Source of the DNA: Faecousia sp.
GTDB lineage: Bacteria; Bacillota; Clostridia; Oscillospirales; Oscillospiraceae
NCBI GenBank assembly: GCA_045654085.1
Contig: JAZOMT010000032.1
Coordinates: 70,182-102,181 of the forward strand
Length of the DNA: 32,000 bases
Direction: 5' to 3'
A program made the translations under genes and the position numbers. The notes under the pieces were generated by a model, which saw only the letters and a program-made list of their open reading frames with translations, was not told where the DNA came from and searched no databases. Shown here one piece after another: positions 1-29,375 of this stretch; the stretch's first letter is position 1, and each line of letters starts with the position of its first letter.

Positions 1-1553
1 TCCATCTGGCCGAGCATTTTCTTGCTCTTCTCGATAGTTTGGGCATCAGATTGCTGCTCCAGTACATCGTAAGTAGCATCGATCAGCTCCAGTACATTCT
101 GATCAAGCTTCAGGTGGACAACACGGCTCTCATAATAAACTGGTCTGGTAGCTCCATCTTCCACCGCCTGGGTCATGTCATAAATGTCGATGTAATCGCC
201 AAAAACCTCACGGGTGTTACGATCCTTTGCAGAGACGGGAGTCCCGGTAAAGCCAACAAAAGTGGCGTTCGGCAGAGCCTCACGTATAATCCGGGCATTA
301 CCCACAACCACGTGCGCTTCCTCTTCCCCCTGCTCGTTCTTGGACATAACAATCTTCTCACTGAAGCCATACTGACCACGGTGAGCTTCATCAGCCATTA
401 CCACAATATTTCTGCGCTCGGACAGCGGCTTTTCGCCTCGTTCGAACTTGAACATAGTGGTGAAGATGATACCGTTAGCACTACGGCCTTCCAGCAAAGT
501 TTTCAAATGTTCCTTACTTTCTGCCTGCACCGGAGTCTGACGCAGGAATTTTGCACACTTAGCAAACTGAGAATATAGCTGATCGTCCAGGTCAATGCGG
601 TCTGTCATCACCACAATTGTTGGGCTATCCAGCACCTCCTGTAGCAAATGGGCGTAGAACACCATAGACAGAGATTTGCCGCTACCCTGGGTGTGCCAGA
701 ACACACCACCCTTGCCGTCAAACTGGGTGGCAATTTTTGCCTTGTCAACTGCCTTGCGAACTGCAAAATACTGATGGTAACCTGCTAGAATCTTGATAGG
801 CTTCTGGCTGTCACCGGAGAAGAGGATAAAGTTCTTCAGGATATCCAGCAAGCGCTCTCTTTGGAAAATACCCTCATAGAAAGTGTCAAACTGTGCAAAC
901 GCTGTATTCTCATAGTTGCCGTCCTTGGTTTTCCACTCCATGAAGCGATCCAAACCAGAGGTAATGGTACCAGCTTTGTTAGTAGAAAGATCGCTGATAA
1001 CACAGATCGCATTATAAATAAACATGGACGGGATATCCTGCATATAATTGCGGATCTGATTATAGGCATTTTCAATGCCGGCCTCTTCCTTGGACGGACT
1101 CTTCAGTTCCATCAGCACCAACGGCAATCCGTTGATAAACAGAATAATATCCGGGCGGCGGTTATTGCCGCTTTCAATGTATGTATACTGGTTGACCGCA
1201 TAGAAGGTGTTGTTGTCCACCTTAGTGTAGTCGATCAAATATACAATGGAGGATCGTTCTTCGCCCTTATAAAAATACTTCACAGTAATACCGTTCTGCA
1301 GGTAGTCCATAAAAACCATATTCTTCTGCACCAGGCTACCGGTATCAAAGTTCTTCAACTTGGAGATCGCCTCATCGATTGCTTCCAGCGGCAGCTTCTT
1401 ATTCAGGCGCACGAGACTATCCCGCAGTTCATTTTCCAGAATGGGACTGGAATAATCCGTGCGGTCCATATCCGGAGCATAGATGTGGGTGTACCCCATC
1501 TTTTCCAGCAGTTCTAAAACTGCCTGCTCAAACATATCTTCTGTGAAGTGCAT
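1..1553 (-). CDS. hsdR: Type I restriction enzyme R subunit (HsdR). The N-terminal ~517 aa are present; the C-terminus lies beyond the left edge.
   Basis: Absent from the ORF track because it is open to the window edge. My translation from the ATG at 1551-1553 (GGAGG 7 nt upstream) reads MHFTEDMFEQAVLELLEKMGY... It contains the nuclease-like RPDIILFINGLPLVLMELK, Walker A WHTQGSGKSLSMV and DEAH box VVMADEAHRGQ. There is no stop down to position 1. Confidence 0.9.
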   Translation of the reverse strand, partial: MHFTEDMFEQAVLELLEKMGYTHIYAPDMDRTDYSSPILENELRDSLVRLNKKLPLEAIDEAISKLKNFDTGSLVQKNMVFMDYLQNGITVKYFYKGEERSSIVYLIDYTKVDNNTFYAVNQYTYIESGNNRRPDIILFINGLPLVLMELKSPSKEEAGIENAYNQIRNYMQDIPSMFIYNAICVISDLSTNKAGTITSGLDRFMEWKTKDGNYENTAFAQFDTFYEGIFQRERLLDILKNFILFSGDSQKPIKILAGYHQYFAVRKAVDKAKIATQFDGKGGVFWHTQGSGKSLSMVFYAHLLQEVLDSPTIVVMTDRIDLDDQLYSQFAKCAKFLRQTPVQAESKEHLKTLLEGRSANGIIFTTMFKFERGEKPLSERRNIVVMADEAHRGQYGFSEKIVMSKNEQGEEEAHVVVGNARIIREALPNATFVGFTGTPVSAKDRNTREVFGDYIDIYDMTQAVEDGATRPVYYESRVVHLKLDQNVLELIDATYDVLEQQSDAQTIEKSKKMLGQM

Positions 1554-1569
1554 AGTGATGCCTCCTACT

Positions 1570-1980
1570 TTATGTTTTTTCCATCGACTCTATGATATCG
1601 ATAATATCTCTAAAAAAGCAGCTCTCTCTGGCAATTTTCTTGCTTAATAGCGCCGCATATGCAAAAACCGCAATAAAGACGGCAACTGTAAGAATCGGTG
1701 GGAAGTCCTTCCAAAGAGTATCAATGTAAATCGGTATTAAGAACCCAATATAACACCAAAACATTTCCGGACTTTTTTCTTGTGAACGCGCTATGTTGAT
1801 GCAATAATGCTTAAAGTTATAAAGATCTTTCGAAGATCTAAAATCAGCAAGAATACCTTTAATATGATCTTCCCATTCAGAATATAGCGTAAATTGCTTA
1901 CTCTTTCCGCAACATAAGCGACCATATTCTTTTTGTTCAATTTTGAGGTTAATTATTTCGTGATAGGGAGGCTTTCTCAT
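1570..1980 (-). CDS. Hypothetical 136-aa protein with a soluble N-terminal ~70 aa and a C-terminal two-helix membrane hairpin, embedded between hsdS and hsdR
   Basis: Complete ORF with AAGGAG 5 nt upstream of the ATG. Its stop lies 17 nt before the hsdR ATG. Hydrophobic stretches are MFWCYIGFLIPIYIDTLW and PPILTVAVFIAVFAYAALL. It is visibly more AT-rich than its neighbours. I recognise no family. Confidence 0.7.
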   Translation of the reverse strand: MRKPPYHEIINLKIEQKEYGRLCCGKSKQFTLYSEWEDHIKGILADFRSSKDLYNFKHYCINIARSQEKSPEMFWCYIGFLIPIYIDTLWKDFPPILTVAVFIAVFAYAALLSKKIARESCFFRDIIDIIESMEKT

Positions 1981-1994
1981 ATATTCTCCTTAAC

Positions 1995-2015
1995 TAAACG
2001 ATAATTTAGCGGCTT
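1995..2015 (+). repeat. Recombination-site copy A: core TAAACGATAATTTA plus GCGGCTT, reading (L)NDNLAA-stop on the plus strand
   Basis: The 21-mer TAAACGATAATTTAGCGGCTT matches the reverse complement of 4948-4968 with 1 mismatch. It lies just outside the hsdS stop codon, so protein conservation cannot explain it. Confidence 0.8.
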
Positions 2016-3204
2016 AAATTTCGATATTAGATACTTCAATTTCACCGCTCATCAAACGTGGTAGCAGCGAGTCGCGTAGATCCTTCAGTCTTGCATTTTC
2101 CATTGCATTGATACGAATCTGTGCGTACATAGGCGCGACCATGGCGGAGAATGCTGCAATTTCTCCAGCTGTTGGTAGGTAGAATTGATATTGGAGTGTA
2201 TCCGACGGGATTGTTCGCTGACGACTACCTGTCGATCCAGTGACATGGCTGCACATAAAATCGGAAAACGGCACACTGTCGATTAGTGAATACAAGAAAT
2301 CGGTGAGCATGCGCTCCTTAGCTTTGTACACGATGAACTCGGTCGAGCAGACCGCATTATCAGTCATACAATAAGGACGCCATACACGCTTCGTAGTTGG
2401 ATTGAGCTTCGAAATCATAAAGCAATCCGCATCCACAATAAACTTGCTACTCTTGATTGCACTGGACAATTCAAATACGGGATAGCGCATTTCGTCAAAA
2501 GCAGGAATGCTGTAATGTTCCAGCATAGTTTCTGGCTGCTTCAACGGGTTAAAACTTTTGTTGGAGATCACAGCAACATCGCCCAACGAAATAAGTGACC
2601 ACCCATCTGGGGTTGAATCACCATCGCGCAGGCAGAAATACTCCGCAAATAAAGTCTGTGCTTGCTGCTGTAAATTATCGTTTATCTGATTATTATGGGC
2701 TATCTTTTGATCAAGTGCCGCAAGGAAGTTTCCAATCTGTTTCTGCTCTGTCAACGGTGGTACGATCAATTCAAGTTCATCCAAAACACCCTGCTGTACA
2801 CGCTGTCGCCCAGACGATCCTACCATTGATTTAATAGCGATATTCCTAAATGCGGGACTAGTTGCGAGGTAATAAACAAATTGTGGGTCGCTAATTCCTT
2901 CTCTTGCTCGCATTACGATGAATTCGGTTGATCCAAATGCAATTTCTCCATCATCCAGAACATCCACGAATGCGGTCTTGCCGTTTTCAAGGCAGGGTGT
3001 AATTCGTGCCATGATGGTGTCACCATTGCAGAATTTTGAACCTCCTGTAAACTCAGCCTGTTCTGTTGTGGGTATTTTCTTTGTGAATGGCTGGAGCTTA
3101 TCCATGGCGATCTTTGTAGCTACAGCACCTTTTTTTATGCTCAGTCGAGGATTAAATTCCACGAATTCTGCAGCACGGATTGTTCTCCAATTCTCCATGA
3201 TCAT
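2014..3204 (-). CDS. hsdS: Type I R-M specificity subunit HsdS, full length (two target-recognition domains), 396 aa
   Basis: TRD1, then the central conserved helix LTEQKQIGNFLAALDQKIAHNNQINDNLQQQAQTLF, then TRD2, then the C-terminal conserved LKDLRDSLLPRLMSGEIEV. Its start is 6 nt after the recombinase stop. Confidence 0.92.
   Translation of the reverse strand: MIMENWRTIRAAEFVEFNPRLSIKKGAVATKIAMDKLQPFTKKIPTTEQAEFTGGSKFCNGDTIMARITPCLENGKTAFVDVLDDGEIAFGSTEFIVMRAREGISDPQFVYYLATSPAFRNIAIKSMVGSSGRQRVQQGVLDELELIVPPLTEQKQIGNFLAALDQKIAHNNQINDNLQQQAQTLFAEYFCLRDGDSTPDGWSLISLGDVAVISNKSFNPLKQPETMLEHYSIPAFDEMRYPVFELSSAIKSSKFIVDADCFMISKLNPTTKRVWRPYCMTDNAVCSTEFIVYKAKERMLTDFLYSLIDSVPFSDFMCSHVTGSTGSRQRTIPSDTLQYQFYLPTAGEIAAFSAMVAPMYAQIRINAMENARLKDLRDSLLPRLMSGEIEVSNIEI
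2656..2684 (-). repeat. Recombination-site copy B, inside the central conserved region of the full-length hsdS
   Basis: The reverse complement is TAAACGATAATTTACAGCAGCAAGCACAG. It matches 4288-4316 at 27 of 29 positions in inverted orientation. Confidence 0.8.
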
Positions 3205-3210
3205 ACCGTC

Positions 3211-4194
3211 CTATCCGATGTATTTTCTGTGTGCCAGCTTAACATTTTGTTGTTTCACCATTGCATAGTGCATGGTAGTGTCGATTTTCTGGTGCCCCAG
3301 GAGCTGCTGCACCTGCTCAATGGGCATTCCCTTATCAATCGCCGATGTTGCCAAGGTTCTCCGGAACTTGTGCGGGTGCACTTTTGGTATGGATAACCTT
3401 CTGCCCAATTGTCGCAATCGCATCTCCACGCCACCAATCTGCAAGCGATCATATGGTGCCCGCAATGTAACAAAAAGCGCCGGATTACTGTCTTTGCGGC
3501 TATCTAGGTAGTGCTGCAAATGAATTTTGGTCCGGGCATCAAAATACACCAAACGCTCCTTGTTGCCTTTGCCAAACACCACGCACTCCCGGTCATTAAA
3601 ATTGATATCATCCCGGTTGAGCAACACCATTTCACCCACACGCATCCCGGAAGATGCCAGCAAATCGATAATCGCTAAATCCCGCAACGAATCGCAGCTA
3701 TCGCGCATCAGTTCCAAAGCCTCATCCGTATAGGTGTCTTTGATGATCTTTGCTGTCTTGACCTTGTGGATCCTGCGAACAGGACTTTTTACAATATAGT
3801 CCTCATCCTCCAGCCAAGAGTAAAAAGTAGCCAGAATGCGCCGAATATTATCAATCGTCACCTTGCTTGATTTGCGTTTGAGTTGATATGCGGTTAAGTA
3901 CTGCCGGATGTCATCCGTGGTGATCCGTTGCACCGGCTTGCCAATACCCGCCACCATCGCCTCTATGGTTTTACCATAGTAGGATAGCGTTTTTTCTGAG
4001 CATCCCTCTATGCGTTTTGCTGCTATAAATGCAGAAATCATATCTGGCTGCTCTTGTTCGTGCGGATTGTTAGATAGCGTGATTTCTACTCCCTGTAGGC
4101 ATTGCTCTATCGCCATTTGAAGTTTTTGAAGCTGTTCATTGTTGAGGTAAGGCAGCATTTTTTGCTGCACCTCGGCGATTAGTTGTTCTTTCAT
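3211..4194 (-). CDS. Tyrosine site-specific recombinase (XerC/D-like, phage-integrase family), the likely hsdS invertase
   Basis: Contains SSGMRVGEM (first Arg), HPHKFRRTLAT (HxxR), LLGH and TTMHYA (catalytic Tyr). I chose the start at MKEQLIAEV (AAAGGAGAAAAGACA-ATG) rather than the track start at 4266. Confidence 0.9.
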   Translation of the reverse strand: MKEQLIAEVQQKMLPYLNNEQLQKLQMAIEQCLQGVEITLSNNPHEQEQPDMISAFIAAKRIEGCSEKTLSYYGKTIEAMVAGIGKPVQRITTDDIRQYLTAYQLKRKSSKVTIDNIRRILATFYSWLEDEDYIVKSPVRRIHKVKTAKIIKDTYTDEALELMRDSCDSLRDLAIIDLLASSGMRVGEMVLLNRDDINFNDRECVVFGKGNKERLVYFDARTKIHLQHYLDSRKDSNPALFVTLRAPYDRLQIGGVEMRLRQLGRRLSIPKVHPHKFRRTLATSAIDKGMPIEQVQQLLGHQKIDTTMHYAMVKQQNVKLAHRKYIG

Positions 4195-4287
4195 TGTCTT
4201 TTCTCCTTTTCTTTGTAAAAAAGAGAACGACAGCAGTGGCAGTTTCTCTAGTAAAACACCCGCCACTGTGGGTGCTTATTAGAACGG

Positions 4288-4316
4288 TAAACGATAATTT
4301 ACAACAGCAAGCGCAG
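4288..4316 (+). repeat. Recombination-site copy C, at the 5-prime end of the silent hsdS cassette
   Basis: TAAACGATAATTTACAACAGCAAGCGCAG, with the same NDNL codon phase as copies A, B and D. Confidence 0.8.
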
Positions 4317-4949
4317 GCGCTGTATCGCAGTTGGTTTATAGAGTGTACGCCATTTGGCGGGACCGTTCCTGCTAACTGGTGCCGTGGAAAACTGAAGGAT
4401 ATACTCCAGTTGCAAAAACGCGCCATCAAGGCTGGTGCTGCACCAGAATTGCCTTACTTGCCAATCGATACCATACCAATGAAAACTTTTGCGGTATCGG
4501 ATTTCCGTCCCAACGAAGAAGCTCAAAGCAGTTTGATACAGTTCAGCAAGGACGATATCCTAATTGGCGCGATGCGTGTGTACTTCCACCGTGTTATAAT
4601 TGCTCCTTGCGATGGCATCACCCGAACAACCTGCTTCGTTTTGAAGCCCACAAATCACGCATATTTGGGCTTTGGTTTGTTGACATGTGATTTGGACAGC
4701 AGTATTGATCACGCCCAAAACACTTCCAAGGGATCTACCATGCCGTATGCTGTATGGGATGGTGGTATGGGTGAAATTGAAATTGCCATTCCACCTTTAG
4801 AAGTTGCCAAGGAGTTTAACGAATTGGTATTACCCATGCTCCGGCAAATCCAGAACTCATATTTTGAGGTAAAGGCCTTGCGCGAATTGCGTGACAGCCT
4901 GCTTCCTCGACTTATGTCGGGCAATCTGGATGTCAGCGAATGCTTTTAA
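4288..4949 (+). other. Promoterless hsdS C-terminal half cassette (central-helix remnant, TRD2, C-terminal conserved region), inverted relative to the hsdM-linked hsdS
   Basis: Reads (V)NDNLQQQAQALYRSWF...TRD...LRELRDSLLPRLMSGNLDVSECF-stop. No N-terminal TRD, no RBS and no start codon at 4288. The track ORF start at 4194 is antisense to the recombinase leader. Confidence 0.85.
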
Positions 4950-5482
4950 GCAGCTAAATTATCGTTTATTTGCTTATTGACAGCAATCTTCTTATCGATA
5001 GATTCTAATATCTGAGCAATTTTGTCTTGTTCTTTCTCATCGAATAAAGGAATCTGCAAATCCTTTATGTTCTTAAGGCTAATTGTTTTCTGCGTAGAAC
5101 CAACAACCATTTGTTCAATTTGCTGTCGCACAAAAAAGGAACTTAATACATAATACAAATATCTGCTGTTGATTTTAGGAGAAATAATAGCTGTGTTTTG
5201 TCCTAAACAGAACACTTTGCTACTTGCTACATATGAAAAAATACCGTAAGATCCTACTCGGCTAATTATGATATCACCAATTTGCGGTTTGTGCTTTGCA
5301 CTGTATTTTTCATAATCTTCTGCACTAACCATTAAGCAATTTGTAAGATCAAGATCGTCCGCTCGAACATCCGTGACTCTTACCATGGGAATGCCTTTAT
5401 TGCAATACTTAGGAGTTTGGTGTAAAGAGTCAATAACATCGGCAACTTCTGAAAGCTTTATATGTTTGATGTTAGATTGCAT
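4946..5482 (-). CDS. hsdS: Half-length HsdS (single TRD plus central conserved helix), 178 aa, translationally coupled to hsdM
   Basis: Its ATG overlaps the hsdM 3-prime end by 11 nt. It ends DKIAQILESIDKKIAVNKQINDNLAA-stop, inside the motif where a full-length HsdS would continue with QQQAQ. Confidence 0.85.
   Translation of the reverse strand: MQSNIKHIKLSEVADVIDSLHQTPKYCNKGIPMVRVTDVRADDLDLTNCLMVSAEDYEKYSAKHKPQIGDIIISRVGSYGIFSYVASSKVFCLGQNTAIISPKINSRYLYYVLSSFFVRQQIEQMVVGSTQKTISLKNIKDLQIPLFDEKEQDKIAQILESIDKKIAVNKQINDNLAA
4948..4968 (-). repeat. Recombination-site copy D, at the 3-prime end of the half hsdS
   Basis: The reverse complement is TAAACGATAATTTAGCTGCTT. It encodes ...KQINDNLAA-stop. 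Confidence 0.8.
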
Positions 5483-6974
5483 ATCCGATTGCCCCCAGTT
5501 TCTGCCGGATTTCCGCTTCCAGCTTATGGGACTGATCGAACAATTCAGAGAGTTCGCCGGTCAATCGTGCCATTTTCTCTTCAAAGGGCTCACCGTCATC
5601 CTGTTGTTCCTCAATGCCGACATAACGACCGGGGGTGAGGATATAGTCTTGCTTTGCGATTTCTTCTGTAGTTACTACAGCACAGAAGCCCTTCTGATCC
5701 TCCAATGTGCCGTCAGCATAGGAATTATAGGTATCCGCAATCTTTGCAATATCTTCTTCGGCCAGTTCTCGCAGTTTCCGGGTTACCATAGTGCCCATTT
5801 TCCGGGCATCAATAAATAAAGTCTTGCCCGGCTGTTTCTTGTTCTTTGCCAGGAACCACAGAGAAACAGGAATCTGGGTAGTGTAGAACAGCTGGGTAGG
5901 CATTGCAACAATGCACTCCACCAAATCTGCATTGATTATATTTTGCCGGATTTCGCCTTCACCACCGGATTGGGACGAAAGAGAACCATTTGCCAGCACC
6001 ATACCAATCTTGCCATTAGGCGCCAAGTGATGAATCATATGCTGCAGCCACGCAAAGTTGGCGTTGCCGGCAGGAGGCATACCGTACTTCCAACGCACAT
6101 CATCCTTCAGCTTGTCCGCACCCCAATCAGACAGATTAAAGGGAGGATTTGCCAAAATAAAATCGGCACGCAGCGTAGGATGGCAATCGTTGAAGAAGGT
6201 ATCCGCATTGTACTCGCCGAGGTTAGCCTCAATGCCGCGGATCGCCAGGTTCATCTGTGCCATCTTCCAAGTTGTGGGGTTAGAGTCCTGACCGTAGACG
6301 GCAATGCTGTTGATATTGCCGCTATGCCGCTCAATGAACTTTGCAGATTGGACGAACATACCGCCACTACCGCACGCAGGATCGTATACACGACCATTAT
6401 ACGGCTGCAGCACCTCAACCAGCGTACGAACTACGCAAGAAGGTGTATAGAATTCACCAGCCAGCTTGCCTTCCTGCTCTGCGAACTTGGAAAGGCAGTA
6501 TTCGTAAGTCCGACCCAGGATATCTTTTTCACTGCCGTGTTCGATCATTTGGATATTGGTGAATAGATCCACCACATCGCCCAATCTACGCTTGTCCAGT
6601 TCAGGACGAGCAAAGTTCTTGGGCAGAATATCCTTCAGGCGCTTGTTTTCCTTCTCGATTGCACGCATTGCATCATCAATCACAGTGCCAATTTCAGGGG
6701 TATGTGCCTTGGATGCAATCACACTCCAACGGGCAGACGCAGGCACGAAGAAGATGCCTTCAGAGGTGTACTCATCAATATCCTCTTCGAAGCCATCGCC
6801 TTCTGCCAGCAGTTCCTGATACTTTTCCTCGAAGCGATCAGAGATATACTTCAGGAAAATCAAACCCAGTACAACACTCTTGTATTCAGATGCATCAATA
6901 TTGCCACGTAGGACACATGCGGCATCCCAAATTTGTTTTTCAAAACCAATACCGGCTGTATTCTTTTCTGCCAT
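5472..6974 (-). CDS. hsdM: Type I R-M N6-adenine DNA methyltransferase subunit HsdM, 500 aa
   Basis: HsdM N-terminal domain (LRGNIDASEYKSVVLGLIFLKYISD), AdoMet motif VYDPACGSGGMF and catalytic LANPPFNLSDW. Confidence 0.95.
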   Translation of the reverse strand: MAEKNTAGIGFEKQIWDAACVLRGNIDASEYKSVVLGLIFLKYISDRFEEKYQELLAEGDGFEEDIDEYTSEGIFFVPASARWSVIASKAHTPEIGTVIDDAMRAIEKENKRLKDILPKNFARPELDKRRLGDVVDLFTNIQMIEHGSEKDILGRTYEYCLSKFAEQEGKLAGEFYTPSCVVRTLVEVLQPYNGRVYDPACGSGGMFVQSAKFIERHSGNINSIAVYGQDSNPTTWKMAQMNLAIRGIEANLGEYNADTFFNDCHPTLRADFILANPPFNLSDWGADKLKDDVRWKYGMPPAGNANFAWLQHMIHHLAPNGKIGMVLANGSLSSQSGGEGEIRQNIINADLVECIVAMPTQLFYTTQIPVSLWFLAKNKKQPGKTLFIDARKMGTMVTRKLRELAEEDIAKIADTYNSYADGTLEDQKGFCAVVTTEEIAKQDYILTPGRYVGIEEQQDDGEPFEEKMARLTGELSELFDQSHKLEAEIRQKLGAIGYAI

Positions 6975-6975
6975 T

Positions 6976-7191
6976 TTACACTACCTCCTGTTCAGGAATT
7001 AGGTCCATAATATCTCCGATGTTAGCATTTAGCGCAGTACAAATCTTGACAAGCACCGTCATAGACACTTCTTCGTCCCGACGGAGTTTCGTCATAGTAT
7101 TAGGCGCTACACCCGCCGCTCTGCGCAGGTCCGCTTTGCTCATTTTCTTGTCGACTAGCAACTTCCACAGCTTGTTATACGAAATAGCCAT
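6976..7191 (-). CDS. XRE-family helix-turn-helix protein (71 aa), immediately upstream of hsdM
   Basis: MAISYNKLWKLLVDKKMSKADLRRAAGVAPNTMTKLRRDEEVSMTVLVKICTALN is a typical HTH_XRE fold pattern. GGAGG sits 8 nt upstream of the ATG at 7191. Its stop is 1 nt from the hsdM ATG. Confidence 0.85.
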   Translation of the reverse strand: MAISYNKLWKLLVDKKMSKADLRRAAGVAPNTMTKLRRDEEVSMTVLVKICTALNANIGDIMDLIPEQEVV

Positions 7192-7226
7192 AGTGAAACC
7201 TCCATATGTAGACAAAATTTTATTGT

Positions 7227-7255
7227 ATTATACATCATTTTATTATATGATGCAA
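7227..7255 (-). promoter_or_regulatory. Sigma-70-type promoter for the XRE-hsdM operon
   Basis: On the minus strand: TTGCAT (7250-7255), a 17-nt spacer, then TATAAT (7227-7232). Confidence 0.6.
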
Positions 7256-7286
7256 GAAAGTTTCGCAATATTTTGCGAAACTTTCT
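7255..7286. promoter_or_regulatory. Perfect palindrome with 14-bp arms, AGAAAGTTTCGCAA-tatt-TTGCGAAACTTTCT, abutting the -35 box. Candidate operator.
   Basis: Read directly from the sequence. There is no clear U-tract on either strand, so an operator is more likely than a terminator. Confidence 0.5.
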
Positions 7287-7337
7287 ATTTCGATTAGCTG
7301 TATCACCATTCGTTTTTTCTATCGTCCACAAATCCCC

Positions 7338-7353
7338 TTTCTTTGTTTATAGC
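7338..7353 (+). repeat. Direct repeat copy 1 (TTTCTTTGTTTATAGC)
   Basis: The identical 16-mer recurs at 7724-7739 and 13837-13852. Confidence 0.7.
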
Positions 7354-7403
7354 GGCACAATTTTTCATTGTCCGTGGGTGGTGGATTTTACAGAAGAAAC
7401 AGC

Positions 7404-7432
7404 TTGACAATTGCGTCGCGTCAAGGTACAAT
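7404..7432 (+). promoter_or_regulatory. Near-consensus sigma-70 promoter with no coding target
   Basis: TTGACA (7404-7409), a 17-nt spacer, then TACAAT (7427-7432). The inverted repeat CTTGAC...GTCAAG overlaps the -35 box and spacer. Confidence 0.55.
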
Positions 7433-7441
7433 CACGCAAAC

Positions 7442-7497
7442 AAAACCGCTTCCTGTAGATCGGCAAAAGTTGCCGTAATCTGCAAGAAGCGGTTTTT
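7442..7497 (+). ncRNA. Candidate short RNA or promoter-proximal intrinsic terminator: a hairpin of about 25 bp with a 3-nt loop and a U-tail
   Basis: AAAACCGCTTC (7442-7452) pairs perfectly with GAAGCGGTTTT (7486-7496). Inner pairing includes AGAT/ATCT and CGGCAA/TTGCCG around the loop AAG. It begins a few nt after the predicted transcription start. There is no ATG in the segment. Confidence 0.4.
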
Positions 7498-7534
7498 GAC
7501 CACATAGTTGACCATATCCTGACCTGGACCACAT
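7496..7534 (+). repeat. Iterated TTGACCA(C/T)AT / GGACCACAT units
   Basis: TTGACCACAT at 7496-7505, TTGACCATAT at 7508-7517, TGACC at 7520-7524 and GGACCACAT at 7526-7534. GGACCA recurs at 7636-7641 and 7671-7676. Confidence 0.6.
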
Positions 7535-18454: not shown

Positions 18455-18476
18455 GTGATAAAATATATACACAAAA

Positions 18477-18724
18477 CGCGAGGATGAAAATCAGTATACA
18501 CCCATCCGTTTCTCCAGAGAGCTGCCGGTCGGTGCAAGGCAGTGAAGCTGCGGTGTAGAATTCCTTTCGGAGCGGCTTTGCTGAAATTACAGTAGGCGAA
18601 GACGGGAAAGCCCGATACAGCTTGCGGATCGATTCGATCCCACGAGGCCGCGTATGCGGTAAACTGAGGTGGTACCACAGGAATTTCTTGTCCTCTGCTT
18701 TTGGCAGAGGGCTTTCTATTTATT
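18477..18724 (+). promoter_or_regulatory. T-box leader (tRNA-sensing riboswitch) with terminator/antiterminator. The putative specifier is UUC (Phe).
   Basis: Stem I has a GA/K-turn (CGCGAGGATGA opposite GGAGCG) and AGTA. Helix TACACC (18497-18502) pairs with GGTGTA (18552-18557). The AG bulge is TCCAGAGAG, and the distal loop GGTCGGTGCAA is closed by CTGCC/GGCAG. The specifier-loop 3-prime side is GAA-TTC-C (18558-18564). The T-box sequence is AAACTGAGGTGGTACCACAGG, with the bulge UGGUACC at 18670-18676. The terminator GTCCTCTGC-ttttg-GCAGAGGGC is followed by TTTCTATTT. Confidence 0.8.
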
Positions 18725-18743
18725 CAAACAAAAGGTGATCGCT

Positions 18744-20381
18744 ATGGTAATTACAGACTTTTTGGAACGAAATGCAAGACTTTACGGGCAAGACATTAGT
18801 CTCGTGGAGATCAACCCCTCCGAAGAACGGGACAAAGCCGCCACTTGGTGGGACTTTAACCTGATTGAAAGCGCCAGTCAGGATGCCCCCTACCGTCGGG
18901 AAATGTCCTGGAAAGACTTTGACCGCCGGGCAAACCGCTTTGCAAACCTGCTGCTCAGCCGCGGCTTAAAGCGGGGCACAAAGGTGGCGATTTTGCTTAT
19001 GAACTGTATCGAATGGCTGCCTATTTACTTCGGTATTTTGAAGGCCGGCTGTGTCGCCGTGCCTATGAACTTCCGTTACAGCAGCGACGAAATTCAGTAC
19101 TGCCTGGATTTGGCAGATGTAGAGGTTTTGGTATTTGGACCTGAGTTTATTAGCCGAATGGATGCGGTTGCAGATAGTATCCCCGGTGTAAAAACCCTGT
19201 TCTTCGTAGGTAAAAACGGCCCTCAGTATTCTGAGGACTGTATGTCGCTTCTGCAGTTCTGCTCCTCCAGCGCGCCTCCTGTTGCCCTGTGCGAGACAGA
19301 CGATGCGGCCATCTACTTCTCCTCCGGCACTACCGGCTTTCCGAAGGCCATTTTACATAATCATTTGTCTCTCGTGCACTCCTGCCTGACTGAACAAAAC
19401 CACCACGGACAGAGCCGGGAGGATGTATTCCTCTGCATCCCGCCCCTATACCACACCGGCGCAAAAATGCACTGGTTCGGCTCTCTGCTCTCCGGTTCCA
19501 AGGCCGTGCTGCTGCGGGGTGTAAAACCGGAGTGGATTCTCGGGGCAGTCACCGAGGAGCGCTGCACCATTGTTTGGCTCTTGGTGCCGTGGGCGCAGGA
19601 TCTGCTGGACGCCATTGACGACCACCGTGTTGACCTCTCCAAATTCCGTCTCGATCAGTGGCGGCTGATGCACATCGGCGCCCAGCCCGTACCCCCCAGC
19701 TTAATTCACCGCTGGATGAAGATTTTCCCCCACCACCAGTACGACACCAACTACGGTCTGTCCGAATCCATCGGTCCCGGCTGTGTCCACTTAGGTGTGG
19801 ACAATGTCCATAAAGTTGGCGCCATCGGCAAGCCCGGCTTCGGTTGGGAAACAAAAATTGTGGACGAACACGGTGTTGCGGTAGAAAAGGGCGATGTAGG
19901 CGAGCTGATTGTTCGCGGCGACGGTGTAATGACCTGCTATTATAAAAATCCCGATGCCACCGCAGAGGTACTCCGGGACGGCTGGCTCTTTACCGGCGAT
20001 ATGGCGCGAGAGGACGAGGACGGCTTTATTTACTTAGTAGACCGCAAGAAGGATGTTGTCATCTCCGGCGGTGAGAACCTGTACCCCGTACAAATCGAAG
20101 ATTTCCTGCGCTCCTTCCATAAAATCAAGGACGTGGCGGTTATCGGTCTGCCCGATGCCCGCCTTGGCGAAATTGCTGCAGCCATCATCGAATTGAAAGA
20201 GGGCGAAAGCTGCACCGAAGCAGAAATCGACGAATTCTGCACAGCCCTTCCCCGCTATAAGCGCCCCCGGAAGATCTTCTTTGATAAAGTTCCCCGCAAC
20301 CCCACCGGCAAGATTGAAAAGCCGGTACTGCGTGAAAAGTACTGCCATGGCCGCTTAGTGGAAGTGCAGATCACAGGCTAA
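18744..20381 (+). CDS. AMP-forming acyl-CoA synthetase (ANL superfamily), substrate unknown
   Basis: YFSSGTTGFPKAILHNH (AMP-binding motif), YGLSES, TGDMAREDEDGFIYLVDRKKDVVISGGENLYP and the terminal PRNPTGKIEK. The start MVITDFLERN has AAAGGTGA upstream. Confidence 0.85.
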   Translation: MVITDFLERNARLYGQDISLVEINPSEERDKAATWWDFNLIESASQDAPYRREMSWKDFDRRANRFANLLLSRGLKRGTKVAILLMNCIEWLPIYFGILKAGCVAVPMNFRYSSDEIQYCLDLADVEVLVFGPEFISRMDAVADSIPGVKTLFFVGKNGPQYSEDCMSLLQFCSSSAPPVALCETDDAAIYFSSGTTGFPKAILHNHLSLVHSCLTEQNHHGQSREDVFLCIPPLYHTGAKMHWFGSLLSGSKAVLLRGVKPEWILGAVTEERCTIVWLLVPWAQDLLDAIDDHRVDLSKFRLDQWRLMHIGAQPVPPSLIHRWMKIFPHHQYDTNYGLSESIGPGCVHLGVDNVHKVGAIGKPGFGWETKIVDEHGVAVEKGDVGELIVRGDGVMTCYYKNPDATAEVLRDGWLFTGDMAREDEDGFIYLVDRKKDVVISGGENLYPVQIEDFLRSFHKIKDVAVIGLPDARLGEIAAAIIELKEGESCTEAEIDEFCTALPRYKRPRKIFFDKVPRNPTGKIEKPVLREKYCHGRLVEVQITG

Positions 20382-20405
20382 ACCCCGTATTTTGGAGGAA
20401 TTGAA

Positions 20406-22145
20406 ATGAAAGAGTTAATTTTGGGCAACGAAGCCGTTGCCCGTGGCTTATACGAAGCCGGATGTAGCTTTGTGTCCAGCTATCCCGGCACCCCCAGCAC
20501 AGAAATTACCGAAGCGGTCGCCAAGTATCCTGAGGTCTATGCCGAGTGGGCGCCCAACGAAAAGGTAGCTATGGAAGCCGCCTTTGGCGCATCTTTAGCC
20601 GGTCGTCGGTCTTTTTGCGGTATGAAGCACGTAGGTCTTAACATGGCCGCTGACCCCCTGTTCACCATCTCCTATACCGGTGTCAACGGCGGTATGGTCA
20701 TCGGTGTGGCAGACGATGCGGGCATGCACTCCTCTCAGAACGAACAGGACTCCCGTCATTACGCCCGCGCCGCCAAGATTCCTATGCTGGAGCCTTCTGA
20801 TTCTGCTGAAGCTTTGGCATTTGCCAAGCTGGCCTACGAGCTTTCCGAACAATTCGACACCCCCGTACTTCTTAAAATGTGTACCCGCGTTTCCCACTCT
20901 CAAAGTGTAGTGGAAACCGGTGAACGGGTGGAGTGCGTCAAGGAATATAAGAAGGACATTCCTAAGTATGTTATGATGCCCGGCAACGCAAAGAAGCGCC
21001 ATCCCGTGGTAGAAGCACGGACAAAAGCGCTGATTGCCTATGCTGAGGATGCCGACATCAACCGTGTGGAAGATGGCAATGACCATTCTATCGGCATCAT
21101 CACCTCCTCTACCTCCTACCAGTATGTAAAAGAGGTCTGCGGTGATACTTATCCCGTGCTGAAACTGGGTATGATCTGGCCGCTCCCCGAGGAAAAGATT
21201 CGCAAGTTTGCCGCATCTGTAGACCGTTTGGTGGTCGTGGAAGAGCTGGACGGCTTTATCGAGAGCCATTGCCGGGATTTGGGTCTTTCCTGCACCGGCA
21301 AAGCAGATTTCCCCAACATTGACGAGCTGATGCCCCTGACCGTTGCCGCCAAGCTCTCCGAGACTTGGGAAACCGGTGCAAAGCTCAGTGAAGCCATCCC
21401 CCCCAGACCCCCTGTTATGTGCGCCGGCTGTCCCCACAGAGGTCTGTTCTACACCCTGAAGAAGAATAAAATCACCGTCCTCGGTGGCATCGGCTGCTAT
21501 ACCCTTGGCGCAGTTGCGCCCCTTGCCGCAGTCGACAGCGTGATCTGTATGGGCGCATCCGTCTCCGGCCTCCACGGCTTCTCCAAGTCCCAGCAGGGCG
21601 CCATGGACGGAAATACCGTAGCCGTCATCGGTGACTCCACCTTTATGCACTCCGGCATTACCGGTCTTGTCAATATGGCATACAATGAGTCCAATGCCAC
21701 GGTTATCATCGTGGATAACTCCATCACCGGTATGACCGGTCACCAGCAGAACCCCACCACCGGCTTTAATCTCAAGGGCGACCCCTGCGCCAAGATTGAC
21801 TTGGAGACCCTTTGTAAGGCCGTTGGCATCCGTCGTGTCCGTGTCATTGACCCCTATAATCTTTCTGAGTGCGATGCGGTTATCAAGGAAGAGCTGGCCG
21901 CAAAGGAGCCTTCCGTCATCATCTCCCGCCGTCCCTGCGCGCTATTAAAGTACGTAAAGCACAACAAGCCCCTTTCCGTCGATACAGATAAGTGCGTCGG
22001 CTGCAAGGCCTGTATGAAAATCGGCTGTCCTGCCATCAGCATTGTGGACGGCAAGGCAAAGGTGGACGAAACACTGTGCGTCGGCTGCGGTGTCTGCGAG
22101 CAGCTTTGTAAGTTCGATGCGCTGAGAAGCATCAAGGAGGTCTAA
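20406..22145 (+). CDS. iorA: Indolepyruvate (arylpyruvate):ferredoxin oxidoreductase alpha subunit
   Basis: LILGNEAVARGLYEAGCSFVSSYPGTPSTEI N-terminus, a TPP-binding region GDSTFMHSG, and two C-terminal 4Fe-4S motifs (CVGCKACMKIGCP and CVGCGVCEQLC). Confidence 0.9.
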   Translation: MKELILGNEAVARGLYEAGCSFVSSYPGTPSTEITEAVAKYPEVYAEWAPNEKVAMEAAFGASLAGRRSFCGMKHVGLNMAADPLFTISYTGVNGGMVIGVADDAGMHSSQNEQDSRHYARAAKIPMLEPSDSAEALAFAKLAYELSEQFDTPVLLKMCTRVSHSQSVVETGERVECVKEYKKDIPKYVMMPGNAKKRHPVVEARTKALIAYAEDADINRVEDGNDHSIGIITSSTSYQYVKEVCGDTYPVLKLGMIWPLPEEKIRKFAASVDRLVVVEELDGFIESHCRDLGLSCTGKADFPNIDELMPLTVAAKLSETWETGAKLSEAIPPRPPVMCAGCPHRGLFYTLKKNKITVLGGIGCYTLGAVAPLAAVDSVICMGASVSGLHGFSKSQQGAMDGNTVAVIGDSTFMHSGITGLVNMAYNESNATVIIVDNSITGMTGHQQNPTTGFNLKGDPCAKIDLETLCKAVGIRRVRVIDPYNLSECDAVIKEELAAKEPSVIISRRPCALLKYVKHNKPLSVDTDKCVGCKACMKIGCPAISIVDGKAKVDETLCVGCGVCEQLCKFDALRSIKEV

Positions 22146-22147
22146 GT

Positions 22148-22720
22148 ATGAAAACACAAAATGTTATGATCGTCGGCGTTGGCGGTCAGGGCAGTCTGCT
22201 TGCCTCCAAGCTGCTGGGTCGATTGCTGCTGAGCAAAGGCTATGATATTAAGGTCTCCGAGGTCCACGGTATGAGCCAGCGTGGCGGCAGCGTGGTCACT
22301 TACGTCCGTTTCGGTGACAAGGTCTATTCCCCTGTCATTGACAAGGGGCAGGCTGATTTCATCGTCTCCTTTGAGCTTTTAGAGGCCGCCCGCTGGACGG
22401 AGTACTTAAAGCCCGGTGGAAAGATCATCACGAATACCCAAAAAATCAATCCGATGCCCGTCATCATCGGTGCTGCCGAATATCCCGAAAGCTTGGAAGA
22501 CAAGATGAAAGAAGCCGGTATCGACTTGGACGCGCTGGATGCCTTGACCCTCGCTGAGCAGGCAGGCTCTTCCAAGGCTGTCAACTTGGTCCTGATGGGT
22601 CGTCTTTCCAAGTATTTTGACTTCCCCGAAGAGGAGTGGATGCAGGCCATCGAAGCCAGCGTTCCTCCCAAGTTCTTAGAAATGAACAAAATCGCATTTA
22701 AGCTGGGCGCCAACGCATAA
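22148..22720 (+). CDS. iorB: Indolepyruvate:ferredoxin oxidoreductase beta subunit
   Basis: NVMIVGVGGQGSLLASKLLG...HGMSQRGGSVVTYVRFG, the gamma-domain type of 2-oxoacid oxidoreductases. It starts 2 nt after iorA. Confidence 0.9.
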   Translation: MKTQNVMIVGVGGQGSLLASKLLGRLLLSKGYDIKVSEVHGMSQRGGSVVTYVRFGDKVYSPVIDKGQADFIVSFELLEAARWTEYLKPGGKIITNTQKINPMPVIIGAAEYPESLEDKMKEAGIDLDALDALTLAEQAGSSKAVNLVLMGRLSKYFDFPEEEWMQAIEASVPPKFLEMNKIAFKLGANA

Positions 22721-22734
22721 AGGAGATGGTCACT

Positions 22735-24033
22735 ATGCCCAAGTATTTTCAGCCTGAAATCGAAACCATGCCTTATGACCAGCTTCGGGCGCTCCAAAAT
22801 GAACGCCTCCAAAAGCAGGTGCGCCACGTTTGGGACAATGTTCCCTATTACCGCAAAAAAATGGAGGAAAAAGGCGTTACACCCGAGGATATCCATGGTG
22901 TAGACGACCTTTATAAGCTGCCCTTCCTCTGCAAAGATGACCTGCGGGAGGCCTATCCCTACGGTCTCAAGGGTGCGCCCCTTTCCGACTGTGTCCGCAT
23001 CCACTCCACCTCCGGCACTACCGGTAAGCGGGTGGTTGCCTTCTACACCCAGCACGATATTGACCTGTGGGACGATTGCTGCGCCCGCGCATTGGTCGCC
23101 GCCGGCGCAACCAATGAGGATATTTGTCACATAGCCTACGGCTTCGGTCTTTTCACCGGCGGCGCCGGTCTCAACGGCGGCTCCCATAAGGTAGGCTGCC
23201 TGACGCTGCCTATGTCCTCCGGCAATACCGACCGGCAGCTGCAGTTTATGACAGACCTGGGTTCTACCATTCTCTGCTGCACGCCCTCCTATGCGGCCTA
23301 TCTTGCAGAATCCATCGAGGAGCAAGGTCTCCGTGGTCAGATTAAGCTGAAAGCCGGTATCTTCGGCGCAGAGGCTTGGAGCGAGGATATGCGCCACGAC
23401 ATCGAAAATAAGCTTGGTATTAAAGCATATGATATTTACGGTCTCACCGAGACCTCCGGCCCGGGTGTTGCCTTCGAGTGCAGCGAGCAGACCGGTATGC
23501 ATATCAATGAAGACCACTTTATCGCTGAGATCATCGACCCTGACACAGGCGAGGTGCTGCCCGAAGGCGCTAAGGGCGAGCTGGTATTTACCGCCATCAC
23601 GAAAGAAGCCTTCCCGCTGCTGCGCTACCGCACCCGTGATATTTGCGTACTGACCCGCAAGAAATGCTCCTGCGGCCGCACCCACGTAAAAATGAGCAAG
23701 CCTATGGGTCGCAGTGACGATATGCTGATCATCCGCGGTATCAACGTCTTCCCCTCTCAAATCGAGACAGTTCTTATCCAGCAGGGTTATCCCGCCAATT
23801 ACCAGATTATCGTAGACCGGGTCAACAACTCCGACACCTTTGAGGTTATGGTAGAAATGAATCCCGAGATGTTTTCCGATTCTCTGGCTAAAATTGCCAG
23901 CGCGGAAAAGAAGCTGGTGGAAGCCCTGAAGGCTATGCTGGGCATTGCCGCCAAGGTAAAGCTGGTAGCCCCCAAGTCCATCGCCCGCAGCGAGGGCAAA
24001 GCCGTCCGTGTCATCGACAAGCGTAAACTCTAA
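22735..24033 (+). CDS. paaK: Phenylacetate-CoA ligase family protein (PaaK-like)
   Basis: MPKYFQPEIETMPYDQLRALQNERLQKQVRHVWDNVPYYRKKMEEKGV, IHSTSGTTGKRVV and YGLTETSGPG. The start at 22735 has better spacing from GGAG than 22726. Confidence 0.88.
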   Translation: MPKYFQPEIETMPYDQLRALQNERLQKQVRHVWDNVPYYRKKMEEKGVTPEDIHGVDDLYKLPFLCKDDLREAYPYGLKGAPLSDCVRIHSTSGTTGKRVVAFYTQHDIDLWDDCCARALVAAGATNEDICHIAYGFGLFTGGAGLNGGSHKVGCLTLPMSSGNTDRQLQFMTDLGSTILCCTPSYAAYLAESIEEQGLRGQIKLKAGIFGAEAWSEDMRHDIENKLGIKAYDIYGLTETSGPGVAFECSEQTGMHINEDHFIAEIIDPDTGEVLPEGAKGELVFTAITKEAFPLLRYRTRDICVLTRKKCSCGRTHVKMSKPMGRSDDMLIIRGINVFPSQIETVLIQQGYPANYQIIVDRVNNSDTFEVMVEMNPEMFSDSLAKIASAEKKLVEALKAMLGIAAKVKLVAPKSIARSEGKAVRVIDKRKL

Positions 24034-27440: not shown

Positions 27441-29375
27441 TTATTTCTCTTGGCTGCTCTTGGGATCGAGAACATCCCGGAGCGTGTCGCCAATAATATT
27501 AATACTGATGGTTGCAAGGGACAGGAAGATGGCGGGGAATACCCACTGCCACCAGTAGTTCTGAATAACGATGGAGTTGTTGGCACCGTCGAGCATATTG
27601 CCCCAGGTGGGCTGAGGTTGCTGAACACCGAAGCCCAGGTAAGACAGGCTGGATTCCGTCAACAGACAGCCGGCAAAGTCCAAAGTAACGTTAACCAAAA
27701 TGATGGAGATAACATTGGGCAAAATATGCTTAAAGGCGATCCGGGTCTCCTTGATACCCATAGACTGTGCGGCAATAACAAATTCCTTTTCACGCTCGGC
27801 AAGCACCTGGGCGCGGATCATTCTGGCAAGGCCAGTCCAGCTTAAGAGACCCAACATAACCATAATAATGAAGATACGGGTAGTCTCGTCAATGGGCTGG
27901 GTACGAATGACAAAGGAAAGCATCATTGCAAAGGGCAGGAACGGAATGGCAGAGAAGATCTCGGTCACACGCATCAGTAGCATATCCACCCAGCCGCCAA
28001 AGTATCCGGAGATGCAGCCAACGATGATGGCAATAATGGTAGAAACGATAACGGCAACTGCGCCGATGGTCATCGTCATCTTGCCGCCGTGAACAATACG
28101 TGTAAATACGTCACGGCCGCTCTTATCCGTACCCATCAGGTAGCCCTTAAAGCCGGCCTTATCCGTCAGATCGTCATTTTCATCCACAAGATAGGTCTGC
28201 TTTGCACCGACAAAGATGTCATCAGCAGTCTTTCCGGTGAGATCGGTCTGGCCGTGGTCATTGTGACCCCAAGACATAACGGTGCCCTTATCGGTCAGCG
28301 CCACAAAGTGACGTGTGCCAGCCTTAACGGAAACGTACTTCTCTCCCTCGGGCGCAGCAGGTACATCCTTTTCGCCATACTGGGCAGCACCCCAGGCTAT
28401 GATACTGCCATCGCTGAGAACAACTGCATAGCAGTTATTCGTAGCCGCAATATCCACAGCAGTCTTACCCTCCAGGTACGCCTTCAGATTTTTAATCGTA
28501 CCGGTGGCGGAGTTGGTAGCAGAAACCATCTGGAAGGACAGCGTAGAACCGCCGGTAACCGTGCCGTCTTCCATCAGCATCAGCGCATAGTAGTTGGTCA
28601 GCGCCACCTTTTGGACGCCGTCAGAAAACTTTTCCGTGACCTCTGGCAGGCTCAGCATAGCATTTTTGTTGCCCCATGCATAGGTAGTGCCGTCTTTCAT
28701 AACTAGAACCGTACACTGGTAACCGCAAACAAGCTGCTGCACTTGATTGGGGTCAATGGTGCCGTACATCAACTCGTCGGGCATCTGAATGTAAGGATCG
28801 TCGGGACTGGCCAGCATACCGTACTGACCGTTGCCGTTATTGCCCCAGCCGACGACCTTACCGTCGGTAGTAATGGCAATAATATGGTCAGAACCGGCAG
28901 CGGCATGGGCAACCTTACCAGGCTGGATTTCAGCGGGGAAATCCGCATAATTGACACGGCTCAGGTTATCCACGGTATTGCCCCAAATATAGAGCGTATT
29001 GTCATTGCTGACACCCACTGTAAAGCCGCCAAAACCGCTGATATCTCGAATATTGTCTTGGAGTTCACTCGGCACCTTCAGAAATGTGTAGTTAGGCGCA
29101 ATGTTTGCCTGGAGCGGGTCTGTATAGTTCAAGTCCATAGGCCAGATTTCCGGGCCGATGAAAACAAACAGGAACAGGCTTACCAGCAAAACCAAAGCAA
29201 CTACTGCTAATTTGCGGCGGAAGAAAGCCTTAACTGCCATTACAGAGGGGCTCTCAATATTCTCAACAGCAAACCTTTCCTCATCGGTCAACTCCTTGCT
29301 TGCGCCAAAGAACATCCGCTTGCCCCAACGGGCAAGAGTAGAAAACACAGTATTCTTTTTTTCTTTATTCGCCAT
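27441..29375 (-). CDS. OppC/DppC-like ABC permease carrying an RCC1-like repeat ectodomain between TM1 and the conserved core (644 aa)
   Basis: TM1 is LAVVALVLLVSLFLFVFIG. Residues ~105-400 hold repeated motifs LYIWGN, VVGWGNNGNGQYG, TYAWGNKN, IIAWGAAQYGEKDVP and VMSWGHNDHGQTDL. The canonical LMGTDKSGRDVFTRIVHGG and the permease core follow. Confidence 0.85.
   Translation of the reverse strand: MANKEKKNTVFSTLARWGKRMFFGASKELTDEERFAVENIESPSVMAVKAFFRRKLAVVALVLLVSLFLFVFIGPEIWPMDLNYTDPLQANIAPNYTFLKVPSELQDNIRDISGFGGFTVGVSNDNTLYIWGNTVDNLSRVNYADFPAEIQPGKVAHAAAGSDHIIAITTDGKVVGWGNNGNGQYGMLASPDDPYIQMPDELMYGTIDPNQVQQLVCGYQCTVLVMKDGTTYAWGNKNAMLSLPEVTEKFSDGVQKVALTNYYALMLMEDGTVTGGSTLSFQMVSATNSATGTIKNLKAYLEGKTAVDIAATNNCYAVVLSDGSIIAWGAAQYGEKDVPAAPEGEKYVSVKAGTRHFVALTDKGTVMSWGHNDHGQTDLTGKTADDIFVGAKQTYLVDENDDLTDKAGFKGYLMGTDKSGRDVFTRIVHGGKMTMTIGAVAVIVSTIIAIIVGCISGYFGGWVDMLLMRVTEIFSAIPFLPFAMMLSFVIRTQPIDETTRIFIIMVMLGLLSWTGLARMIRAQVLAEREKEFVIAAQSMGIKETRIAFKHILPNVISIILVNVTLDFAGCLLTESSLSYLGFGVQQPQPTWGNMLDGANNSIVIQNYWWQWVFPAIFLSLATISINIIGDTLRDVLDPKSSQEK

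Follow-up and report, generated by a model that had tools for sequence, protein, structure and literature searches.

In a 32,000-nucleotide stretch of DNA from Faecousia sp. (assembly GCA_045654085.1, contig JAZOMT010000032.1, positions 70,182 to 102,181; hereafter the window, numbered from its first letter) we find a Type I restriction-modification (R-M) locus that is, in all likelihood, a phase-variable shufflon in which a resident recombinase acts on four sites, of the same kind as SsuCC20p of Streptococcus suis, with four alleles of the specificity gene hsdS and one complete hsdS. The layout reads hsdM, the first target recognition domain of one hsdS (TRD1b), cassette c between two cores, the recombinase, TRD1a, cassette b between two cores, a small open reading frame (ORF) and hsdR. 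An original prediction, made from the letters of the window, had proposed a recombinase-driven Type I R-M shufflon with a 14-bp core as its site, and this is borne out by nearly identical loci whose rearrangements break exactly at the cores. Its further proposal, that each hsdS is an independent switch and that the two were caught in opposite states, is contradicted by the arrangements of related loci, which are described below.

Results

The 14-mer TAAACGATAATTTA has exactly four matches in the 32-kb window, all of them exact in a 14-mer search, against a chance figure of about 0.28 even with two mismatches. Sites A (1995-2008, plus strand), B (2671-2684, minus strand), C (4288-4301, plus strand) and D (4955-4968, minus strand) alternate in orientation, and all four are read in frame and in the same phase, as Asn-Asp-Asn-Leu (NDNL), just as the original prediction had placed them. 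In the core, TAAA and TTTA arms flank an asymmetric 6-bp spacer, CGATAA. Upstream of B and D lies coding sequence for a TRD1 (TRD1a at B, with 176 open codons, and TRD1b at D, with 198), and upstream of A and C the sequence is non-coding, with 1 open codon at A and 48 at C, where this null head is the upstream region of the recombinase gene (4195-4287). Downstream, B and C continue into a second domain (TRD2b over 218 open codons and TRD2c over 215), and A and D continue into two alanine codons and a stop, GCG GCT TAA at A (2009-2017) and GCT GCT TAA at D (4954-4946). A repeat finder extends the pairs to inverted repeats of 29 nt for B and C (2656-2684 and 4288-4316) and 27 nt for A and D (1992-2018 and 4945-4971), each at 93%, and the convergent stop codons overlap in a TTAA at 2014-2017 and at 4946-4949. 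These flanks, long repeats and stop overlaps had all been described from the first reading and hold up.

A cassette lies between each pair of inverted cores. Cassette 1, the cassette c of the layout (4302-4954, plus strand, between C and D), holds a silent TRD2c (NDNLQQQAQALYRSWF...SECF, stop codon at 4947-4949), and the plus-strand reading frame 4290-4949 encodes a TRD2 only. Cassette 2, or b (2009-2670, minus strand, between A and B), holds TRD2b and the C-terminal conserved helix and is now fused to TRD1a in the sole complete hsdS, TRD1a-NDNL-TRD2b (2014-3204, minus strand, 396 amino acids, Pfam Methylase_S). The truncated hsdS (4946-5482, minus strand, 178 amino acids) encodes TRD1b and about 30 residues of the central helix, ends in INDNLAA and matches Pfam Methylase_S (positions 4-166 of 168). 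Between the two genes, where a tyrosine recombinase had been predicted, stands a XerA/XerD-like gene (3211-4194, minus strand, 327 amino acids) with Pfam Phage_integrase and Phage_int_SAM_4 domains and an NCBIfam recomb_XerA_Arch score of 236.8 (cut-off 220); the complete hsdS starts 6 nt past its stop codon.

In the mechanism that we propose, each invertible cassette, which carries a TRD2 on one strand and, at its far end and on the other strand, the two-codon Ala-Ala-stop tail, would let a TRD1 head read either into a TRD2, giving a complete HsdS, or into a clean stop, giving a truncated one. A flip of 4302-4954 would fuse TRD1b in frame to TRD2c, as had been foreseen. The locus-encoded tyrosine recombinase would recombine the cores through inversions, with excision and reintegration as a probable second route, redistributing the two TRD2s among two TRD1 heads and two non-coding heads. 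Four specificities could be formed in this way, namely 1a-2b, which is the state of the window, 1a-2c, 1b-2b and 1b-2c.

The anatomy of the locus is conserved in a large family. A homologue search with the recombinase returned more than 8000 homologues, the best 120 of which are 86-96% identical, and at least 576 relatives of the recombinase turned up when GTDB was scanned with one genome for each species. Eighty loci were fetched and examined, their sources including Acutalibacteraceae, Faecalibacterium prausnitzii (two complete genomes), Gemmiger, Ruthenibacterium, Butyricicoccus, Blautia, Lacrimispora, Listeria costaricensis, a Streptococcus and Megasphaera among others. Each locus was scanned for cores, the sequence upstream of a core being classed as its head and that downstream as its tail. 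In 56 of the 80 loci there are four sites in the order +,-,+,-, the recombinase having an inverted pair to either side of it. Such loci usually show two TRD1 and two non-coding heads together with two TRD2 and two short stop tails; five of the 56 differ slightly from this pattern or run into a contig end.

A single core sequence is shared by the four sites of a locus in 53 of the 56 four-site loci. Between loci there are eight core variants, in which the outer TAAA and AATTTA are constant and the central bases vary (CGATAA, TGATAA, CAAGAA, CGAGAA, CAATAA, CGCGAA, TGAAAA and one more). This identity within loci and change between them, at the two sites with non-coding upstream sequence as well, shows the cores to be recombination sites and not a codon habit, since protein coding cannot account for covariation at sites where none is found upstream. 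Outside the core, only GCGGCTT next to the stop and the coding sequence towards the TRDs are conserved, and the non-coding heads vary. Two genomes, those of Ligaoa zhengdingensis NSJ-31 (L018 and L033) and Coprococcus intestinihominis CLA-AA-H190 (L023 and L054), have two four-site loci each, and in both the coexisting loci differ in their spacer, CGATAA versus TGATAA, a mismatch in the crossover region that would keep them from recombining together.

Annotated plasmids of Ligilactobacillus salivarius, Lactococcus cremoris and Enterococcus faecium show this layout too, with the recombinase named xerA by the Prokaryotic Genome Annotation Pipeline (PGAP), and relatives of the recombinase are also carried by conjugative or mobilizable plasmids and by human faecal contigs labelled 'Bacteriophage sp.'. 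One homologue of 500 amino acids (P0137, on an ENA contig of 12,749 bp) outscored every 327-amino-acid recombinase in both recombinase searches; it has the additional Pfam domains PF20547 and PF22823 and may be a fused or extended recombinase. A six-site version is found in a Lacrimispora sp. (L052, 6334-11427), where an inverted silent TRD2 follows each of three truncated TRD1 genes and the arrangement, as assembled, has zero complete hsdS.

Arrangements can be written as the four sites in order, each with a TRD1 head (H) or a non-coding head (n) and a TRD2 tail (T) or a stop tail (s). Because the loci share descent and some of them are metagenome bins, the following are not counts of independent samples: the state of the window, Hs nT HT ns, in which the hsdM-linked hsdS is truncated and the downstream one complete, occurs in 28 of the 56 four-site loci, the reciprocal state, HT ns Hs nT, in 19, and variants of one or the other in 4. 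Alternative arrangements, which the original prediction had suggested should be sought in related genomes, are in this way found in number. The recombinase block is inverted in two of the 56 (the incomplete loci L001 and L004 look alike), no complete hsdS is present in two (L010 and L052), one (L062) is not classifiable by state, and two complete hsdS are present in none. The rare states, with four loci inverted for the recombinase and two lacking a complete hsdS, indicate that single events do occur.

Enumeration of four-site recombination gives 16 reachable arrangements, 12 of them with one complete hsdS (8 of these with the recombinase inverted), 2 with two and 2 with none, and a random walk over inversions puts 25% in the class that holds about 90% of the real loci. 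The system would appear to sit nearly always in four of the sixteen formal arrangements, those in which the recombinase block is co-directional with hsdM and hsdR and exactly one hsdS is complete. Were each hsdS instead an independent switch, with C and D flipping cassette c and A and B flipping cassette b, the window would show one of each state by chance. The geometry permits it, as perfectly inverted cores flank each cassette, and the two loci without a complete hsdS require the flip of a single cassette. Two independent flips would however leave a quarter of the loci with two complete hsdS and a quarter with none, about 14 each of 56, against the 0 and 2 found. In S. suis there is exactly one complete hsdS in each genome and in each long read, without either of these states (PMC10790761), and the best-resolved pair of our loci differs by a cassette swap and not by flips in place. 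Independent switching is on this evidence quite improbable. Since none of the 56 loci has two complete hsdS and just two have none, the 'opposite states' of the two genes are the rule and not chance: a coupled four-site system normally stands with one hsdS complete and the other truncated.

Loci that are otherwise nearly identical have been rearranged at their cores in nature. In the best-resolved pair, from two different species, Coprococcus intestinihominis (L023) and Hominicoprocola fusiformis (L024), the loci are 99.3-99.9% identical over about 12 kb and the two cassettes have exchanged places, unflipped, a swap that takes four inversions or one excision and one reintegration. The similarity of the roughly 12 kb with the whole R-M locus, 98.6-99.9% across two species, points to recent horizontal transfer. 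In L025 and L026, and likewise in L038 and L039, a shared cassette of 99.9% identity is shifted to the other position and inverted, and between L006 and L007 the recombinase-TRD1 block is inverted. Throughout these rearrangements in loci more than 99% identical, the breakpoints fall exactly on cores. Relatives thus show both events that had been proposed as formal possibilities: the two hsdS genes exchange TRD2s, and the recombinase-TRD1 block flips.

Contigs of 1.4-2.9 kb that end at or near cores (14 of the 80 loci, among them the isolate assemblies L022 and L028) were considered as a sign of heterogeneity within cultures. They were set aside as ambiguous, since longer shared TRD2 starts could also break assemblies.

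The modules of the window recur in other combinations. TRD1b, at 94-97% identity, is joined to two other TRD2s (P0057 and P0122), and TRD2c, at 90% identity or more, is preceded by no fewer than five different non-coding heads and by at least two other TRD1s (P0003, P0135 and P0008). Compared with the complete HsdS of the window, P0008 keeps a high identity through NDNLQQQAQ, which collapses right after. In contig L003 the similarity to the window ends exactly at core D and returns at the C-terminal helix, stop tail and inverted core, and in contig L001 the hsdS-recombinase-TRD2c block is inverted relative to hsdR. A database search with a constructed query, the hypothetical fusion TRD1b-NDNL-TRD2c, did not find this exact isoform, its halves occurring separately in other combinations, and exact-sequence look-ups with the hsdM and the truncated hsdS of the window, aimed at the same strain in another state, gave no match.

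Several points weigh against an active shufflon of the SsuCC20p kind in the window. The exact alternative alleles that could be built from the window's own TRDs were not found in databases. Some of the tallied loci are metagenome bins, in which the assembly at a heterogeneous locus may be mosaic. Present-day switching in the window's organism is something that we infer, as is orthology of the recombinase to the SsuCC20p XerD, for which the architecture and the shared site form AGATAAA-N6-TTTA speak; a Streptococcus genome (L070) has the same layout and a recombinase 70% identical to the window's, and in a homologue search from that recombinase no S. suis entry was among the 120 matches listed. 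The missing alternative alleles would also suit a frozen relic, that is, a once-active shufflon that no longer switches and whose 178-amino-acid hsdS is a dead fragment. Such decay is very improbable indeed: none of the four cores has a mismatch, the full-length recombinase scores above its NCBIfam cut-off and is 84-96% identical to many others, both states occur across dozens of species, and loci 99% identical differ in arrangement.

The stop tail bears on what the truncated gene may do. In the original prediction site A, which lies beyond the hsdS stop codon, was held to be meaningful and no accident, and the survey agrees: the Ala-Ala-stop tail is conserved, with termination after two codons in 103 of 110 stop tails and with Ala-Ala in 89 and Val-Ala in 10 of these 110, and all three stop codons are used (TAG 49, TAA 41, TGA 20). 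The truncated TRD1-only HsdS might work as a homodimeric specificity subunit for a palindromic bipartite site, in which case a cell would always have two specificities and the locus more than four outputs. In keeping with this, the two-codon tail is kept family-wide whichever stop codon follows, the gene retains TRD1 and about 30 central-helix residues, and its first 11 nt overlap the end of hsdM, which suggests translational coupling to hsdM. Precedents, as cited in PMC7394358 and PMC6265443, are NgoAV and the truncated half-HsdS forms of EcoDXXI and EcoR124I. In wild-type S. suis, on the other hand, the methylome consists of two bipartite motifs, both from complete HsdS, with no palindromic motif reported (PMC10790761); the conservation of GCGGCTT could reflect shared descent of cassette ends or a role in the recombination site; and a few loci (L017, L065, L068 and L076) carry a tail of eight codons, PYQSLMVA-stop or AHQSSMVA-stop, which means that the two-codon tail is not strictly required. 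A working homodimeric subunit is unlikely in our judgement, and a function of any sort for the truncated HsdS rather unlikely; in the window's organism the product is most likely inactive or minor. We put forward with considerable doubt that the Ala-Ala-stop tail is selected, the truncated protein serving as a palindrome-recognising homodimeric subunit or as a partner that titrates HsdM, and that, alternatively or additionally, the rule of one complete hsdS comes from a concerted four-site reaction and not from selection among independent inversions.

The remaining genes of the locus complete a Type I R-M system, with hsdR, hsdM and hsdS all present by Pfam. On the minus strand the order of transcription is a helix-turn-helix (HTH) gene, hsdM, truncated hsdS, recombinase, complete hsdS, a 136-amino-acid ORF and hsdR. 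hsdM (5472-6974, minus strand) has Pfam N6_Mtase and HsdM_N domains, and of hsdR (3-1553, minus strand; HSDR_N, SWI2_SNF2 and ResIII) the N-terminal 517 codons are present, the gene being cut by the window edge. Upstream of hsdM, the Cro/C1-type HTH protein (6976-7215, minus strand, Pfam HTH_26) could be a regulator of the R-M system. A perfect 14+14 bp palindrome, AGAAAGTTTCGCAA tatt TTGCGAAACTTTCT (7255-7286), sits upstream of the HTH gene at a distance of 40 nt and could serve as operator for a controller protein of the R-M operon; it also fits a terminator-like pattern. Promoter and terminator scans of 1500-7500 gave sites no commoner than in shuffled sequence, and no tRNA gene was found adjoining the locus.

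Between the downstream hsdS and hsdR lies the 136-amino-acid ORF (1570-1980, minus strand, from the ORF list), whose ribosome-binding region is the null head at site A. Its product looks hydrophobic, and Pfam and NCBIfam searches gave no match for it. Elsewhere in the family this slot is filled by unrelated genes, such as a 207-amino-acid ORF (L001, 2457-3080) or a DUF3800 gene (L085, 8219-9715, Lactococcus), and the S. suis locus likewise carries 'hypothetical proteins' (PMC10790761).

Two further observations were made elsewhere in the window. A T-box leader (Rfam RF00230, 132 bits, 18472-18698) lies directly upstream of a gene for an AMP-binding enzyme (region 18669-24033), which is followed by a ferredoxin oxidoreductase (TPP-binding, POR_N) and a second AMP-binding-family enzyme with an AMP-binding_C_2 C-terminal domain. 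T-boxes usually precede genes for aminoacyl-tRNA synthetases or for amino-acid biosynthesis or transport, and these genes are an unusual T-box cargo. An OppC-type ABC permease (27441-29375, minus strand; OppC_N and BPD_transp_1) has RCC1-like repeats between its N-terminal transmembrane segment and its permease domain.

Discussion

Gut Firmicutes commonly have the four-site design, each locus with core sequences of its own. The recombinase's at least 576 relatives include those of Faecalibacterium, Gemmiger, Blautia and Ruthenibacterium, and the design extends to plasmids of Lactobacillales. In gut isolates and metagenomes such loci should make methylomes heterogeneous and break assemblies. 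The original prediction had regarded the layout as undescribed. That view does not stand, as the arrangement is that of SsuCC20p (PMC5198162, PMC10790761) and truncating inversions have been noted by Huang et al. for invertase loci of the TvrR clade, which have "peculiar" arrangements in which inversion would give a truncated HsdS and which were omitted from experiments (PMC7672463). A literature search on 'half-length HsdS' gave no match. The REBASE survey of Atack et al. set a lower limit of 20 identical bp for inverted repeats (PMC7394358) and would mostly miss loci with 14-bp cores.

The classical hsdS invertons, SpnD39III/ivr and those of Bacteroides fragilis, Listeria monocytogenes, Enterococcus faecalis and Treponema denticola (PMC4190663, PMC7672463, PMC7662400, PMC7394358), resemble the locus in that a tyrosine recombinase and inverted repeats inside hsdS swap TRDs and alter methylation specificity. 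They differ in having one expressed hsdS beside hsdM, which always has two TRDs, with silent, promoterless partial copies on the opposite strand and several distinct sets of repeats, often of 20 bp or more. In the window there is one class of repeat, at four identical 14-bp sites, with two co-directional TRD1 heads at hsdS positions that are both predicted to be expressed, and a truncated hsdS in every state. The Listeria monocytogenes system was considered as a case of the same layout and was rejected because its layout is the classical one. A phase-variable choice between full-length and truncated HsdS is also made by NgoAV of Neisseria gonorrhoeae, as cited in PMC7394358; according to that citation the switch is slippage in a poly-G tract, with no part played by site-specific recombination, and the truncated form has known activity.

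A further likeness is found in the tvr locus (SpnIV) of Streptococcus pneumoniae (Kwun et al. 2018, PMC6265443), with the order hsdM, TRD segments, recombinase, TRD segments, hsdR. There, too, a short midpoint repeat and a tail-end repeat have a common core, and some arrangements leave a lone N-terminal TRD segment beside hsdM (PMC6265443). The cassette swap between L023 and L024 is the expected outcome of a single excision and reintegration of the tvr type. In tvr, however, all repeats are direct and circular intermediates are formed, only the upstream hsdS is expressed, and a toxin-antitoxin pair and an attenuator are present (PMC6265443); the cassettes of the window have inverted cores, neither of these accessory elements is at its locus, and the ORF list has no toxin-antitoxin genes between its hsdS genes.

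It is SsuCC20p that the locus matches in design. This phage-borne phase-variable Type I R-M system of S. suis (Willemse & Schultsz 2016, PMC5198162; Roodsant et al. 2023, PMC10790761) has its recombinase among the hsdS genes, and inversions give four hsdS variants (PMC5198162). Its co-directional order of hsdM, TRD1, TRD2, recombinase, TRD3, TRD4, hypothetical gene and hsdR is also the order in the window. A conserved 17-mer, AGATAAATCATCATTTA, lies between its TRDs (PMC5198162), and an identical set of 14-bp inverted repeats, TAAATCATCATTTA/TAAATGATGATTTA (PMC10790761, PMC5198162), surrounds TRD2 and TRD4 (PMC10790761). In the window, likewise, each C-terminal TRD is enclosed by a set of 14-bp inverted repeats, the two sets being identical and located in the central conserved region of hsdS. 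When TAAATCATCATTTA is set against sites B (AGATAAACGATAATTTA) and D (AAATAAACGATAATTTA), the arms match, both systems sharing the form AGATAAA-N6-TTTA, and the spacer differs, CGATAA in the window against TCATCA in S. suis, with the residues NDNL against NHHL. One complete hsdS, one truncated hsdS and one silent TRD make up both systems (396 amino acids, 178 amino acids and TRD2c in the window), the complete hsdS can lie downstream of the recombinase, and four alleles are possible. In S. suis the xerD of the locus is required for switching, and the hsdS downstream of xerD is transcribed and methylating (PMC10790761); by analogy, the recombinase of the window may be needed for switching and its downstream hsdS expressed.

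The differences lie in the setting and in the parts. The window comes from a gut Clostridia host and has a chromosomal-looking context, against a streptococcal prophage; the TRDs and the accessory ORF are not alike; and the rare states of the wider family, with an inverted recombinase block or no complete hsdS, are unseen in S. suis. The layout is nonetheless the published SsuCC20p design, here in a gut Clostridia bacterium, and taken alone the window adds little beyond an example in that group of a switch whose working has been demonstrated in S. suis. The many natural variants of its family should be useful for the question that the S. suis study raises, how one recombinase acting on four identical sites keeps exactly one complete hsdS.

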